NCBI GenBank assembly: GCA_019749915.1
Contig: JAIEPE010000028.1
Coordinates: forward strand, 1-24,000
Direction: 5' to 3'
DNA length: 24,000 nucleotides
Source: Alphaproteobacteria bacterium
GTDB taxonomy: Bacteria > Pseudomonadota > Alphaproteobacteria > UBA9655
In this document: one piece after another, positions 77-16,800 of the stretch
How positions within the stretch are numbered: position 1 is the stretch's first letter
Layout of the letters: each line of letters starts with the position of its first letter
The notes under the pieces: model-generated
What the model was told of the DNA's origin: nothing
What the model saw: only the letters and a program-made list of their open reading frames with translations
Databases searched by the model: none
Translations under genes and position numbers: made by a program

Positions 77-565
77 CCCTGCGGGACGGGGAAGACATTT
101 TTAGCCTGTGCCCTTGCTCACAAATCCTGTCTTTCTGGATACACCTCTCTTTACTGTCGTGTGGGACGTCTCTTATCTGAACTACAACTGGGAAAAGGGG
201 ACGGACAATACAGTAAGCGTATGACGGAGCTCGCTAAGACAGATGTTCTCATCTTGGACGACTTTGGCCTCTCTCCCCTTACAGAGGATCACCAACGTGA
301 TTTATTGGAGATTTTAGATGATCGCCACGACAAGCGCTCAACAATTGTTACAAGCCAAGTGCCCGTCAAGTTATGGCATGACTGCATAGGGAATGAAACG
401 CTTGCAGATGCCATTCTTGATAGGCTCGTTCATAACTCCTATCGGGTCGAGATTAAAGGAGAGTCGATGAGAAAGGCTCGGAGTCATATTGGAAAAGATA
501 AAAATAGCTTAAAGAAAGAGAAAACCCTCAATCCATTGTTGGTGAAGAAGAGCGATGAGGATTAA
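77..565 (+). pseudogene. istB: IS21-family IstB-like AAA+ transposition helper ATPase, 5'-truncated
   Basis: The frame is open from 29. From 77 it reads PCGTGKTFLACALA (Walker A), then VLILDDFG (Walker B) and DRLVHNSYRVEIKGESMR (typical IstB C-terminus). About 100 N-terminal residues of a normal IstB are missing. Upstream in frame is repeat DNA with a stop at 26-28. The only in-frame start is a GTG at 161, downstream of the Walker A. Confidence 0.8.
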
Positions 566-11092: not shown

Positions 11093-11173
11093 ATGATAAC
11101 AAAGAAAAGAAAAATTAGGTGAAACTTCAATACAATCTCGTACATTAAAAAACCTGATTGCGGAAAGGTCCTT

Positions 11174-12736
11174 TTAAGAGACACAGGATAATGCCTCCCT
11201 TTCTGTGATTGTTTTGATCGCCATAATTCGATCCATTCGAAAAACTTTATCCTCCTGACTTGTGTGGCAAAAAGCTTTAATTCCCATGTAAGAGATGTTT
11301 TGATACTTCATCAACCTAACGTAAGTTGGTGTTATACGACGAGTGGATTTTTCATTGCTTGCATTGAGGTAAATAATCTCAAGGAGTTGCTGATTTACAA
11401 GGGCAGTTTTGATAAGTTCACTGGTTTCTTCAGGAGAAAAGTGCAGGGACGGTGTGTGCCTTTTAAGATGACTTATGAAAGTAACAACCTCTTCATCACT
11501 CCAGATGTGTCGTGGGTGAATCTGCTTTTTTAAGATCAACCCTTCAAGAGATGTACATCGACTTAAGGCCACATAAACTTGTCCGGACATAAAAGCACCA
11601 CTTCCAATATCAAGGATAACTTTTTGAAAGGTTTTCCCCTGACTTTTATGAATCGTGAGGGCCCAGGCGAGGGCGAGGGGGTATTGGCTGAAAGAGCCTA
11701 TTATCTCTGATTGAATCGCATTTTCTTCAAGAAAAAAGCGGTTGATTTCCCATTTGTGAGGGGAGACATGAACAACTGTCCCCTTTTCGAGGCATACAAC
11801 AATAGTGATATTTTCCTCTTCATCTTTTTCAAAGGCTAGAATTTTTCCCATCGTGCCATTGATCCAGTTCCCTTCAAGATCATTATTTACCATCATAATT
11901 TTGGCGCCTTCCTTAAGGGTTAAAGTCTGGCGTGTTGGATAATATTCTTGTCCAAAAGTTCCCTTGATCTGTGCCTCTGCGGTAAAAGGTTTGCCCTTTA
12001 AAGCATCCAGTTTGTCTGCATTAATAGTATCCGCGTTGCCGTTTTTTGGAGTAAGGTAAATATACCACTCCGATTCAAAATCTGGTTTCACCCGTTGGTT
12101 TAAGAGAGCCATATCCTCTTCTGTCATTGTCTCGTTACGAATGGCGTTTAAAAGGCGAATGAAATGATCCTCTTGCTGACGAAATATTTTCTCCAACTCT
12201 ATAAAGGTCATCTCGTATTTTTCAAAAAATAGAGCACTGAAAAAATAAGGGCTTTTATAGTGGGCTCCAAAAATGTCCTTTTCTTGAGAGGTGACAACGG
12301 GAGGCAATTGATAAAGGTCTCCAATAAAAATTATTTGGATTCCCCCAAAGGGCTGGGAAGGATTTTTTCCATTCAAACGTAGAAATCTATCCACGCAGTC
12401 CAATAAGTCAGCTCTCACCATAGAAATTTCATCAATAACAATGGCATCTAACTTTTTATAAATATTTTTCTTTTCTTTGCCTTTAATCGTTTTAATGGAG
12501 TTTAAGGTGACGCTATGTTTGAACTTAAAGAAGGAATGAATCGTTTGTCCCTGCACATTGATTGCCGCAACCCCTGTGGGGGCTAATACAACAATCTTCT
12601 TCTTTGTATGATGCCTAAAATAAGTGAAGAGAGTTGATTTTCCGGTTCCCGCTTTCCCTGTGATAAAAAGATTCTGAGAGGTATTCTCCATGAGGTCCAG
12701 AGTCTCATTAATGGCAGGATTAAAAGTAATATTCAT
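11174..12736 (-). CDS. Pif1/RecD-family SF1B helicase with C-terminal WYL-like domain
   Basis: Pif1 motifs: GKAGTGKST, LAPTGVAAINVQGQTIHSFF, IVIDEISMV, PFGGIQIIFIGDLYQLPPV, LTIHKSQGKTF, YVALSRC. The C-terminal ~80 aa (nt 11177-11419) reads RRITPTYVRL...ISYMGIKAFCHTSQEDKVFRMDRIMAI, resembling the WYL fold pattern (x-Y-L-x-A-x-C...R-x-F-R-x-D-R-I). Confidence 0.85.
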   Translation of the reverse strand: MNITFNPAINETLDLMENTSQNLFITGKAGTGKSTLFTYFRHHTKKKIVVLAPTGVAAINVQGQTIHSFFKFKHSVTLNSIKTIKGKEKKNIYKKLDAIVIDEISMVRADLLDCVDRFLRLNGKNPSQPFGGIQIIFIGDLYQLPPVVTSQEKDIFGAHYKSPYFFSALFFEKYEMTFIELEKIFRQQEDHFIRLLNAIRNETMTEEDMALLNQRVKPDFESEWYIYLTPKNGNADTINADKLDALKGKPFTAEAQIKGTFGQEYYPTRQTLTLKEGAKIMMVNNDLEGNWINGTMGKILAFEKDEEENITIVVCLEKGTVVHVSPHKWEINRFFLEENAIQSEIIGSFSQYPLALAWALTIHKSQGKTFQKVILDIGSGAFMSGQVYVALSRCTSLEGLILKKQIHPRHIWSDEEVVTFISHLKRHTPSLHFSPEETSELIKTALVNQQLLEIIYLNASNEKSTRRITPTYVRLMKYQNISYMGIKAFCHTSQEDKVFRMDRIMAIKTITEREALSCVS

Positions 12737-12964
12737 TGCGACCAGGCATCGTTTGCTGTTTTTGTAACAGTGTTCTTGCGGGATTGAGTAAACATTAAGA
12801 CAGGTTTGAAACTCATTTTAAGTTTTGATCATTTGTGGGGGTGGTTAAGTTAACCTTTTGCCTTACCCTGTTCTATTGGAAATGCGCTGCAGCCCCCTCC
12901 TGCATTTCGGAGATACCATAGCAAAAATTTTAAGGAAAGGAAATAAGAATCAAAAGTATAAGAA

Positions 12965-13210
12965 TCAGAAACGCCTCTCCCCAACAGACCTCCATCTTTC
13001 AAAGTTATCTTCATCGAACTCATTTTCTTCAAAACAAGTTATGAGAAAGCCCAGAAGCTGGAGGGCCTTAGGGCGGTTTTCATAGGCTTGAAGCTCATCT
13101 CCCGGGGTGATGTGGAAGGCATCCATGAGGCCGGATTTCTGTAAAAGGCCGCCCAGCATTATTAAAGTTCGAGTACGATTTTTACGGTCGACATTGTGTT
13201 GCTGTTTCAT
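12965..13210 (-). CDS. traD: TraD-like small conjugal-transfer accessory protein (Ti-plasmid TraD family, not the F-type coupling protein)
   Basis: The motif RKNRTRTLIMLGGLLQKSGL matches the R-K-x-x-T-R-x-x-I-x-LGGL-x-x-K-x-GL core of Ti TraD. The ATG at 13210 gives 81 aa and no overlap with the upstream gene. The track start at 13333 would overlap the traC-like gene by 107 nt. Confidence 0.6.
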   Translation of the reverse strand: MKQQHNVDRKNRTRTLIMLGGLLQKSGLMDAFHITPGDELQAYENRPKALQLLGFLITCFEENEFDEDNFERWRSVGERRF

Positions 13211-13226
13211 TTTCTGTTTCTCTCGA

Positions 13227-13559
13227 TTAAGAAGATTTCTGAGATGGTTTAGATTTTGCTGTAGCCGTTTCAAGCGGGAGGGTAGGGGGCTGCTTTTTAG
13301 ATTTTGAGCGCCGCAGAAATCGATCACCTGCATCTCGCCAGGCCTCCACCAGGGCGAGCCCTGTTGGGTCTTTGGTGGAGATTTTGTTCTTTAGAAAGAG
13401 CAGGGCTCCAAGGAGGATATTGTCCTCAACTTGGGCAAGATCAAGGGATGTCATGAGGGCTGCAATTTCCTGGTGGCGCTCTTTCAGAAGAGTCTGATGG
13501 TGGGATTGGAGAGTTGAGATTTTGGATTCAAGTTGGCGTAATTTTAATGAGACACTCAT
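13227..13559 (-). CDS. traC: TraC-like relaxosome accessory protein (Ti-plasmid TraC family), tentative
   Basis: 110 aa with an N-terminal coiled coil, then LDLAQVEDNILLGALLFL...WRDAGDRF, similar in layout to Ti TraC. It is divergent from the relaxase across the oriT gap, as in Ti plasmids. The ATG at 13559 has AAGGAG (complement of 13568-13573) 8 nt upstream. Confidence 0.5.
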   Translation of the reverse strand: MSVSLKLRQLESKISTLQSHHQTLLKERHQEIAALMTSLDLAQVEDNILLGALLFLKNKISTKDPTGLALVEAWRDAGDRFLRRSKSKKQPPTLPLETATAKSKPSQKSS

Positions 13560-13580
13560 GTGTTTTTCTCCTTTGTTCAA

Positions 13581-13605
13581 GCGCTTAGGTTTCTCGCCTA
13601 AGAGC
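13581..13605 (-). promoter_or_regulatory. Inverted repeat in the traC-like leader (possible operator)
   Basis: GCGCTTAGG (13581-13589) and CCTAAGAGC (13597-13605) form 8/9 complementary arms with a 7-nt spacer. The element begins 22 nt upstream of the 13559 start. Confidence 0.3.
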
Positions 13606-13730
13606 ATGGTTCACATTTTTGCCTCTTTACGGTTGTAGTATAGCAAACTTGCATAAACGACACAAGTATAAAAATATACATTGATACAAAAATATAAAAA
13701 TTATACACTCCTCATTAGGCAGTCATCTTT

Positions 13731-13776
13731 AGATGCGCACTTATGCGGACTTGCCAGTCGGGGACCGGCAGTCCTC
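13731..13776 (-). other. Predicted origin of transfer (oriT), MOBQ type
   Basis: The minus strand reads GGACTGCCGG-TCCCCGA-CTGGCAAGTCC-GCA-TAAGTGCGC-ATCT. This is an inverted repeat followed by a 9-mer identical to the RSF1010/R1162 nick-region core TAAGTGCGC(CCT), as I recall it. It lies in the gap between the divergent traC-like and relaxase genes, next to an AT-rich tract at 13664-13708. Confidence 0.6.
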
Positions 13777-13885
13777 TGTGCTTAACGGCCACAGGCGAGA
13801 TGATAATTCAAGGTCAGCGGCAGACCTTTTTTAGAGACTTCGCATCACAACAACACAATGGATTGACGCCTAGAGTTAGGTGTCC

Positions 13886-16800
13886 ATGGCGATTTACTCG
13901 CTCAATCTTGGCTTTATTTCCCGCAGTGAAGGTCGCTCTGCGGTGGGCTTTAGTGCGTATATTTCAGCGGGTCATCATCTGGATGAACGTACTGGCATTC
14001 GTCATGATTATGTATGTAAGGAAGACGTTATTGTCAGCCGCATTCTAGCCACTGAGGGGGCTCCGGCTTGGGCAAAGAATGCAGCAACCTTATGGAATCA
14101 CGTTGAGGCTTTTGAAGATCACTTTGCGACCTTAAGGTTCAGAGGAGACACCCGCAATCCTGATAAAAACCAGAAGAGTTTAGAAGCAAGAGAGCGCTTT
14201 TTAAACACAACCCAAACCGCTCAAACAATCATGGGGGCGTTACCTCTTGAGTTTACACAGATGGAGGCTGAAGCCTGTGTGGAGGAATTTCTTAGGGAGC
14301 GATTTGTCTCTCGGGGTCTTGTGGTGCAATACGCCATTCACTGGGATAAAGGGAACCCCCATTTTCATGGATTAATCACCCGGCGGGCTCTTGAAGGTGA
14401 TGCATTCGCTTTCCGAAAAGATCGAGACATTGTTACTAAATCCGAGCTTCGTATCACACGCAAAGCCTGGGAAAGCGTTGCCAATAAACATCTGGCTTTA
14501 GGAGGCCATGAAGTTCGCATTGATTGCCGATCTTACGCAGATCAGGGGCTTGATTTGCTCCCTACCCGCCATGAAGGATGGTATGCTCAGAGGCTTGCAG
14601 AACGAGATGAATATTCACGCATTGTTTCTGAGAATGACAACATTCGTCAAAAGAATATTGAGAGTCTTTGTAAGAATCCGGGAGCTTTAATTCACGAGGT
14701 GTCCATTAAACGCACCGTCTTTACCCGCAAACATCTTGAAGAAGAAATTATTCGCTGGGTAGGCGGTGATGAAAAACTTTTTGCCCTTTTGCAAGTGAAG
14801 GTAGAGGGTGTTGAAATACCCCCAGAGCTCATCCTGAAAACGGCTAATCACAATCAGAATGCTGTATTTGAAGGGGGGATTAACAACATAGCTGCCAAGT
14901 TTATGGAGAAGCTATTAGAAAACACAAACATGGTTGCTGTTGTTGGCGAGAACCTTAACCGCGAGAAGATTTTTACGTCCGCTTCTTATCAACAACAAGA
15001 AGAACAACTCCTCTGTTTTGGAGAGATCTTATCACAACGACAGAACAAAACTGTTTCTGAGAATCTGGTTTTAAAAGCCATTGAACATCGCGAAGAAGAG
15101 CTTGGTTTTGCTTTGTCTGAGGAACAACGTGGGGTCATCTCCCATCTCTGTTCTGGTTCTGATATCAGCATTTTAAATGGTAAGGCCGGCACGGGTAAAA
15201 CAACTCTGTTGAAGGTCGTCGCTGAAGCGTATCAAGAGGCTGGTTATGAGGTTTTGGGCACCTCTTTTCAAGGAAAAGTTGTTGATATCATGGAAGAAGA
15301 AATCGGCATTTCTTGTCGAACTCTTGACAGCTTTATTTATGCCTGGAACAAGCATCAAACACAAAGGGAATTAGTTGAAAGTGGTAAGCTCTGGGGACGG
15401 CCTTACATCTATGCCTTTAATAGCATGAAGGAAATGGAGAAATCTCGGTTCACCGAGAAAAATGTAATCATTGTTGACGAAGCCAACATGATTGGAGGGA
15501 GGCTCTGGGAGCCTTTCTTAAAGGAAGCTGTAGAGAAAGGTGCCAAGGTCCTTATTGTGCAAGACCCTGCCCAGATTAAGTCTCGTGATCCTGGGGATTA
15601 TGGCCGTCTTTTTGCAGAACGGTTTGGCGTTGCTGAAACAACTGAAGTCGTGCGTCAGAGAGTGGGGTGGCAGCGGGAGTGCTCAAAATACCTCAATGAC
15701 CATGAGGTCCTGGATGGTCTTAAGCCTTATTATGATAAGGGTCATTTGACCTGGTTTGATAATAGAGAGAAAGTCATTACTGCTCTTGCTCAATCTTATG
15801 TTAAAGACCAACTCGAAAACCCCGACCAAACCCGCATTGTCCTTGCCTATCGGAATACGGAAGTTCATGACCTTAACCAAGCCATCCGCCATGTTCTTCA
15901 AGAACACGGCCAGCTTCAACAGACCTTTCAACTTCATGGACAAGAGTACGCCATTGGGGATCGGATTCGCTTTACCCAAAATGACAACCATGGACAATAT
16001 ATTAAAAATATTGATGGAGGAGAGCACCTCAAGGGAGTTAAAAACGGGACTTTTGGAACTATTGAAGCCTATGACGAAAGATCTGCAACGCTTACCGTAA
16101 GGCTCGAGAATAACAGACTCGCCTGTAACAGACACGTCTCTTTCAACACGACGGCATATACAAAAATCACCCATGGATATGCCATGGGAGTTCATAAGTC
16201 AGAGGGAAGCACTTTTGACAAGAGCTTTTTATCGCTCGATCCTCTCCTTGATCCTCACACCTGTCTTGTCGCCATGACTCGTCATCGCCAGGATGTTCAG
16301 GTTTATATTAATCGGGAACAGTTTGTTGATTTTAAAGATGTGGTGGATCAAATTTCTCGTACTGCTCTTAAAGAAACAATTCAAGATTATCAGATTACTG
16401 AAGAGCAAAAGTCTTACTTCAATCGCGTTCAACAATATAAGGATTTACTTGTAGAAGGGGTAAATCTACGGGAAGAGATGGAAGGAACTCTTGACCCAAA
16501 GACGCCTTTTTATAAGCATCCTTCCTATCTTGCCTATCAACTGTGTTTTGAGGAGAAGAAACGGGTTGCTAGTAGCATCCTTGAGGACTGGAAAGTTCAT
16601 GCCCCTTATACGCGCCTTGCAGGTCTTCGTAAGGATGTGCTTGAGGTAGAAGCAGGACTAAGACCTCGCTTATTATCTGACATTGAGTATCGAGCCTCTA
16701 TTCAAGTTCAGGGGTATATGGACCTTGTGCTTCAAACACGAGCGCTTTGGAAGGAAATCTCTACAACTCATCCTATATCCTTAGCTCATTCCCATGCTCT

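Follow-up and report, generated by a model that had tools for sequence, protein, structure and literature searches.

The intergenic gap between a large relaxase gene and two divergently oriented small genes in the 24-kb window (the whole stretch of DNA analysed here) very probably contains a genuine MOBQ oriT of the RSF1010/pSK41/Ti type, with a bona fide relaxase nick site at which the nicking itself is predicted. It is best explained as the oriT of a Ti/RAGE-like DNA-processing (Dtr) module. It is a fresh instance of a well-known type that involves no new mechanism and leaves the picture of MOBQ conjugation unchanged. Its value lies in a precise oriT and a predicted nick position for a large relaxase-helicase-Toprim family from uncultured, apparently host-associated Alphaproteobacteria (as judged from MAG relatives and the plasmid of an amoeba symbiont), and the site can anchor the annotation of such mobile elements, for which no oriT description was found in the literature searched (RAGE, Holosporales).

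On the minus strand, positions 13774-13731 read as a 12-bp hairpin followed by GCA, TAAGTGCGC and ATCT. The initial annotation had quoted the same letters but started them at 13776, 2 nt away from their actual position. The parts of the site are as follows:

13774-13765, minus strand: 5' arm of the hairpin, GGACTGCCGG (window sequence)
13764-13758, minus strand: segment TCCCCGA between the arms (window sequence)
13757-13747, minus strand: 3' arm of the hairpin, CTGGCAAGTCC (window sequence)
13747-13774, minus strand: the whole inverted repeat, predicted relaxase-recognition hairpin (folds, covariation, strand bias of wobbles)
13746-13744, minus strand: GCA spacer from hairpin to core (window sequence)
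13743-13735, minus strand: nick-region core TAAGTGCGC (exact match to the published RSF1010 core, invariant in 21/21 loci)
13734-13731, minus strand: ATCT after the core (window sequence)

The arms form nine Watson-Crick pairs with one G:T pair and one bulged A, exactly as first described, and two extra pairs (T13764-A13758 and C13763-G13759) leave a CCC loop and bring the total to 12. Between the main stem and the core lie 3 nt, or 1 nt when the outer G-C pair is included in the stem. Folded as DNA, 13785-13725 of the minus strand reached -11.1 kcal/mol (z = -2.9 against dinucleotide shuffles, of which 2/200 were equally stable), and the 40 nt 5' of the core folded better than 300/300 random 40-mers drawn from the window.

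The initial annotation held the 9-mer to be identical to the nick core of RSF1010/R1162, which agrees with published sequences (PMC4814116, PMC3832669). The published substrate of RSF1010 MobA is CAGTTTCTCGAAGAGAAACCGGTAAGTGCG/CCCTCCC, where the slash marks the nick (PMC4814116; ...GAGAAACCGGTAAGTGCG/CCCTCCC in short form), the MOBQ oriT consensus is NWACCNNTAAGTGCGCCCTYNN (PMC3832669), and a Gram-positive MOBQ variant with the consensus NcgtNtaAgtGCGCcCTta likewise contains the TAAGTGCGC core (PMC10333310). The window shares 9/12 core bases with the MOBQ consensus, namely the 8 nt leading up to the nick and the base at +1, while bases +2 to +4 are ATC instead of the consensus CCT. By homology with RSF1010 TAAGTGCG/CCCT, the nick is predicted to fall between G13736 and C13735 of the minus strand.

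The gap that holds this site is flanked by three genes:

13886-19198, plus strand: relaxase gene, 1770 aa, ATG at 13886 (Pfam, NCBIfam, 4HT4 alignment)
13227-13559, minus strand: oriT-proximal accessory ORF, 110 aa, with a coiled-coil N-terminus, in the position of Ti traC (translation)
12965-13333, minus strand: TraD(Ti)-like accessory ORF, 122 aa, with the motif RKNRTRTLIMLGGLLQKSGL (Pfam, BLASTP)

Pfam assigned to the relaxase a MobA_MobL domain (E = 8e-44), an AAA_30/RecD-like helicase, DUF7146 and Toprim_3. Its N-terminal domain aligns to NES (PDB 4HT4), the sole solved structure that was matched (E = 2e-13, at low identity), with Tyr25 at the catalytic position and the histidine motif HWDKGNPHFH. 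Among NCBIfam models, TraA_Ti (TIGR02768) scored 504 bits, which is under its equivalog cut-off of 590.45, and MobQ scored 148 bits. The oriT-proximal accessory ORF most likely starts at ATG 13559, with AAGGAG 8 nt upstream, so that the gap spans 13560-13885. This ORF had been called traC-like, which holds for its position and fails for homology: BLASTP against Ti TraC detected no similarity (E = 6), and Pfam gave a weak, sub-threshold TraD match. The distal ORF at 12965-13333 matched Pfam TraD with 29.7 bits (cut-off 22.3) and Ti TraD with E = 1e-4 in BLASTP, and the motif RKxxxRxxIxLGGLxxKxGL is common to both proteins. Both accessory ORFs are conserved in the same arrangement, together with the site, in 8-9 related loci, with the TraD-like ORF at full length, and the two divergent small ORFs are likely to encode relaxosome accessory proteins. 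As a separate observation, they overlap out of frame by ~107 nt; in related loci the overlap is 38-104 nt and both full frames are kept at a protein identity of 40-82%, which could reflect a true gene overlap or a recoding site.

The decisive sequence evidence for an oriT is the comparison across loci. With the first 300 aa of the relaxase as a query, 17 loci at 31-91% identity were retrieved from species-representative genomes (mostly alphaproteobacterial MAGs, some gammaproteobacterial or Legionellaceae). The query also matched small mobQ/mobC plasmids of E. coli and a plasmid from Candidatus Paracaedimonas, an amoeba symbiont. Two more copies from the source genome, together with the 17 MAG contigs, the Paracaedimonas plasmid and one of the E. 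coli mobQ plasmids, made up a set of 21 loci. An exact TAAGTGCGC lies upstream of the relaxase gene and on the opposite strand in every one of the 21, and a hairpin ends 1-3 nt before it in all of them, although the hairpin sequences are unrelated between clades. The flanks are otherwise unalignable across the set, nothing is conserved 3' of the C at nick +1, and the 9-mer keeps its place, its strand and its spacing to the hairpin. The E. coli locus (L004) is a MOB-typed mobilizable plasmid and has the same orientation of the nick strand. A blastn search of the gap against plasmids returned no match.

The initial annotation had considered the 9-mer unlikely to occur by chance in a 270-bp gap. 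It does occur only once in the 24-kb window, but there are 9 copies in the 2.08-Mb assembly, and with one mismatch allowed its count in the window equals the shuffle expectation, so the 9-mer alone is unconvincing and its significance comes from its position, its strand and the adjacent hairpin. That a 9-mer and an inverted repeat have merely met by chance between two genes is nonetheless effectively refuted, since the 9-mer recurs at the same place, on the same strand and at the same hairpin spacing in 21/21 loci whose flanks cannot otherwise be aligned, and since genome-wide matches to a model of the site coincide with relaxase genes only. The core sits on the expected strand and side of the hairpin.

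The model in question, a covariance model (R1) built from six loci, describes a stem of 7 bp with a loop of 4 nt, followed by a single unpaired base and the core. It found one strong site per locus, a single site in the window, and two further matches (E 0.7-0.94) in L004 and a MAG relative (L009). Searched across the source genome, it returned three matches with E <= 1, upstream of the long relaxase genes on contigs C72, C53 and C42. In the R1 alignment 97.5% of cells were paired, a percentage that is inflated because the pairs were counted in an alignment fitted to R1 itself, and compensatory double changes occurred at 7/7 pairs. None of 500 shuffles reached the observed covariation score, and sliding the partner by 1-3 columns reduced pairing to 16-37%. 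Across 19 distinct hairpins, the nick strand carries 5 G:T wobbles vs 0 on the relaxase-sense strand, which argues that the TAAGTGCGC strand, not the mRNA, is the folding strand. Together, the model and the 21 loci point to the parts under selection: the 9-mer, the stem geometry, and a CGCCYGTGGCC...AGCACA box described below.

Between the site and the accessory genes, the gap contains an AT-rich tract with promoter-like sequences on both strands:

13681-13709, plus strand: promoter-like TTGATA-17-TACACT facing the relaxase gene (consensus match only)
13637-13665, minus strand: promoter-like TTGTGT-17-TATACT facing the accessory genes (by eye; below the scan threshold)
13660-13701, plus strand: AT-rich tract with the direct repeats ACACAAGTATAAAAAT and ACAAAAATATAAAAAT; it fills the space between the divergent promoter-like sites and extends into them

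The scan for the plus-strand site gave 1 site vs 1.0 expected in shuffles, and its hexamers are kept in a second copy of the gap on contig C42, where the minus-strand site reads TTGTGT-17-TAAACT. The tract and its AAAAATATA-type direct repeats (13660-13675 and 13686-13701) are present as noted at the outset, but the suggestion of an IHF site was dropped: the consensus WATCAANNNNTTR is unmatched in the gap, its sole match in the window lies inside htpG, and the tract instead carries promoter-like hexamers on both strands.

A transcript from 13681-13709 would read through the oriT, which would place the site in the 5' UTR of the relaxase gene, and the oriT regions of MOBQ plasmids such as RSF1010 overlap autoregulated promoters. 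The hairpin and the 9-mer could on these grounds be a purely regulatory element, that is, an operator or a 5'-UTR RNA structure controlling the relaxase gene, but this is very unlikely. An operator would keep the sequence of its arms, whereas here the arms vary freely and complementarity is kept; a sense RNA hairpin would tolerate G:U on its own strand, but each of the 5 wobbles falls on the other strand and would give A:C in a transcript; and the invariant 9-mer equals the experimentally cleaved nic sequence (PMC4814116).

The remaining features of the gap were assessed in an alignment of 11 alpha-clade loci, whose relaxases are 62-91% identical, and by comparison with the C42 copy of the gap, which is 89% identical:

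13775-13797, minus strand: conserved box CGCCTGTGGCCGTTAAGCACAGA, immediately 5' of the hairpin (11-locus alignment)
13860-13872, plus strand: conserved block GGATTGACGCCTA, ~14 nt ahead of the relaxase start codon (minus-strand reading GGCGTCAAT, invariant or nearly invariant in the 11 loci)
13810-13828 (to 13835 with the T-run), plus strand: inverted repeat AAGGTCAGC/GCAGACCTT followed by TTTTT, between oriT and the relaxase start (identical in C42)
13578-13589 / 13597-13608, no strand assigned: inverted repeat CAAGCGCTTAGG / CCTAAGAGCATG in the leader of the accessory operon (repeat search)

Besides the start codon, three blocks are conserved in the alignment, namely GCATAAGTGCGC, CGCCYGTGGCC-N5-AGCACA(AG) and GGCGTCAAT. 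Within the box, CGCC.G.GGCC and AGC.CA are invariant in the 11 loci, and its end, AGCAC(A), recurs in the Ti, Paracaedimonas and E. coli mobQ plasmids. The box was also considered as a hairpin (CTGTG/CACAG), but the variation at its Y position is uncompensated in relatives, which makes a sequence-specific protein site more likely; 13797-13775 is a candidate contact site for an accessory protein or the relaxase. In addition, AGCAC is complementary to GTGCT of the nick core, and in the MFE fold GCAC is base-paired to GTGC, a pairing on which covariation is silent because neither partner varies.

The inverted repeat in the accessory leader, already pointed out in the initial annotation, carries compensatory A>G / T>C changes in C42 (CTTAGG/CCTAAG to CTTGG/CCAAG) and is a candidate operator or mRNA hairpin. 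The repeat at 13810-13835 is terminator- or attenuator-like and may be an attenuator or a protein-binding site; the terminator scan called no intrinsic terminator at 13810-13828. In the hairpin arms of the oriT, the sole change in C42 turns the G:T pair into A:T.

Compared with known systems, the window resembles Ti plasmids in its organisation and left-hand box, and RSF1010 and pSK41 in its nick core. With RSF1010/R1162, the MOBQ1 prototype, it shares an identical TAAGTGCG/C and an inverted repeat just 5' of it on the nicked strand, a divergent relaxase gene on the other strand, and a single-Tyr MobA/MobL relaxase with Tyr25 and a histidine triad. It differs from RSF1010 in having ATC, not CCT, at +2 to +4; in its GCA spacer, whereas the RSF1010 repeat abuts the core; in its 12-bp stem with a bulge and unrelated sequence; in the RecD-like helicase added to the relaxase; and in accessory genes that are TraD_Ti-like, not MobB/MobC. 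The C-terminal primase-type Toprim domain of the relaxase is reminiscent of the MobA-RepB' fusion of RSF1010.

The Ti plasmid used for comparison was pTi_CFBP2407 (NZ_KY000060.1), in which traG-traD-traC lie on one side of oriT and traA on the other, and the strand opposite traA reads ...GGCCGTGGGCAAGCAC GTCGC ATCA GCGAC G TATAATTGCGCCCTT. Common to both are the gene order (accessory genes, oriT, then a divergent traA), a nick strand opposite traA, the AGCAC-IR-N-TATAATTGCGCCCT arrangement with a nick core ending in ...TTGCGCCCT, a relaxase followed by a RecD-like helicase, which in the window is nearest to TraA_Ti among the NCBIfam models though under the equivalog cut-off, and a TraD-like small protein. 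The Ti-like traA/oriT/traC layout proposed earlier holds for the order seen on pTi_CFBP2407 but not beyond traD, where no traG/T4CP follows; on that side the window has a Pif1-WYL helicase gene, which is missing from the other copy. Unlike Ti, whose core is TATAATTGCGC, the window has the core TAAGTGCGC, and its relaxase has an extra ~900 aa that include DUF7146 and Toprim. NES of pSK41/pLW1043 is the match of the relaxase domain in 4HT4, and the TAAGTGCGC core is common to the Gram-positive consensus; in pSK41, too, a single A separates the hairpin from TAAGTGCGC, and CAC stands in front of the hairpin. The host phylum of pSK41/pLW1043 is different (Gram-positive), and NES is without helicase and Toprim domains.

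The source assembly comprises 2.08 Mb in 73 contigs, is 97% complete, and is fragmented and MAG-like. I take it to resemble genomes with RAGE (Rickettsiales amplified genetic elements), which combine an F-type T4SS with Ti-type traA/traD; the likeness consists of Ti-type TraA/TraD modules, an F-type TraC with a TrwB/TraD_F-type coupling protein, and multiple relaxase copies. Among plasmids, the closest relative belongs to Candidatus Paracaedimonas, the amoeba symbiont. Eight MobA/MobL relaxase genes were found (C59, C54, C43, C49, C45, C72, C42 and C53), five of them encoding ~1200 aa, and the C45 gene is interrupted by TGA. No TAAGTGCGC-type core was present in the upstream sequence searched for these five (~185 nt only for C43 and C45), which presumably use another nick sequence. 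Contig C72 (25704-40775; 82208-82980) encodes an F-type TraC, a TrwB/TraD_F-type coupling protein and a 2397-aa relaxase, which is preceded by its own hairpin and core, GTGATTG CAA ATCAC CG TAAGTGCGC (82939-82980), in flanks that resemble the Paracaedimonas plasmid oriT.

From ~800 to 22160, the window has diverged copies at 84-96% identity on C42, C24, C47, C12, C69, C11 and C23. This stretch includes NRPS helper genes, the Dtr module and htpG, with the Dtr module being the most diverged (~84-86%), and its copies may be paralogues of an amplified element or the product of strains assembled together. An indel particular to this copy is formed by the Pif1-WYL helicase gene (11116-12793): C42, C12 and C47 join 11115 straight to 12794, so the helicase does not belong to the constant content of the Dtr module. 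The window yielded neither an integrase nor an att site nor a tRNA. At its right edge, a TOTE-type AEP primase fused to a ResIII/DEAD helicase (22180-23961, minus strand) runs off the window, and an IS21 IstB fragment lies at its left edge (161-565, plus strand).

The main reading would be qualified if the site were a relic: an oriT descended from the MOBQ type, and maybe still bound by the relaxase, in a copy that no longer transfers, as part of a DNA-processing module stranded in a symbiont-type genome that accumulates and decays mobile elements. I consider this possible but unlikely. It draws on the window having neither a coupling protein nor a mating pore next to the module (Pfam showed no T4SS-DNA_transf and no TrwB domain), on an assembly with a single T4CP and a single F-type TraC, both on C72, and with no VirB4-type ATPase, on the one relaxase gene in eight that is TGA-interrupted, and on the IS21 IstB fragment. 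Against it, two copies that are only ~86% identical both keep an uninterrupted relaxase ORF (1772 and 1776 aa), hairpin, core and box are fully kept between the copies save for the one change that improves pairing, and both accessory ORFs are intact and conserved, which fits purifying selection on a working module.

For this oriT, the following course of processing is proposed by homology with RSF1010 MobA and NES. The N-terminal MobA/MobL domain would bind the minus-strand hairpin (13774-13747) at its base together with the single-stranded TAAGTGCG, and Tyr25 would cleave between G13736 and C13735 and stay linked to the 5' phosphate of C13735. The fused RecD-like helicase would then unwind the minus strand 5'->3', and since that strand would leave 5'->3', the accessory genes (towards 12965) would enter first and the relaxase gene last. 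Once reconstituted on the incoming strand, hairpin and core would direct termination and religation. Relaxosome assembly probably involves the accessory proteins together with the conserved box, and as the AT-rich tract carries divergent promoter-like sites, this assembly probably represses both operons, as in RSF1010. Being without its own coupling protein and pore, the module would need a T4CP/T4SS in trans, most plausibly the F-type system of C72.

A bolder reading, offered tentatively and more doubtful than not, takes the Dtr module (oriT, relaxase-helicase-Toprim protein and the two overlapping accessory genes) as an amplified, pore-less mobilisable unit that would parasitise the F-type T4SS of C72. 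On this reading, the shared core TAAGTGCG/C would allow a common processing chemistry, and element-specific hairpins would prevent cross-reaction between relaxases. The AGCAC flank, which extends from Ti plasmids to these symbionts, may in addition pair with GTGC of the core, and the extended cruciform so formed would mask the nick site until the relaxosome assembles.

Two minor observations concern the sequence beyond the nick. Starting at nick +1, the window can form a mini-hairpin of 4-5 bp (13735-13724, minus strand; CATC-TAAA-GATG), for which compensatory variants occur among the window and L007, L008, L010, L012 and L013 (CATC/GATG, CATCT/AGATG, CCTCA/TGAGG, CATCC/GGATG and CCAGG/CCTGG). 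It covaries in 8 alpha-clade loci, yet is energetically weak, missing elsewhere and indistinguishable from controls. In the MAG relative L009 (2740-2840, minus strand), two 45-nt repeats in tandem come after the nick region; they contain the degenerate cores TAAATGCGC and TAAATGCGA without a hairpin.
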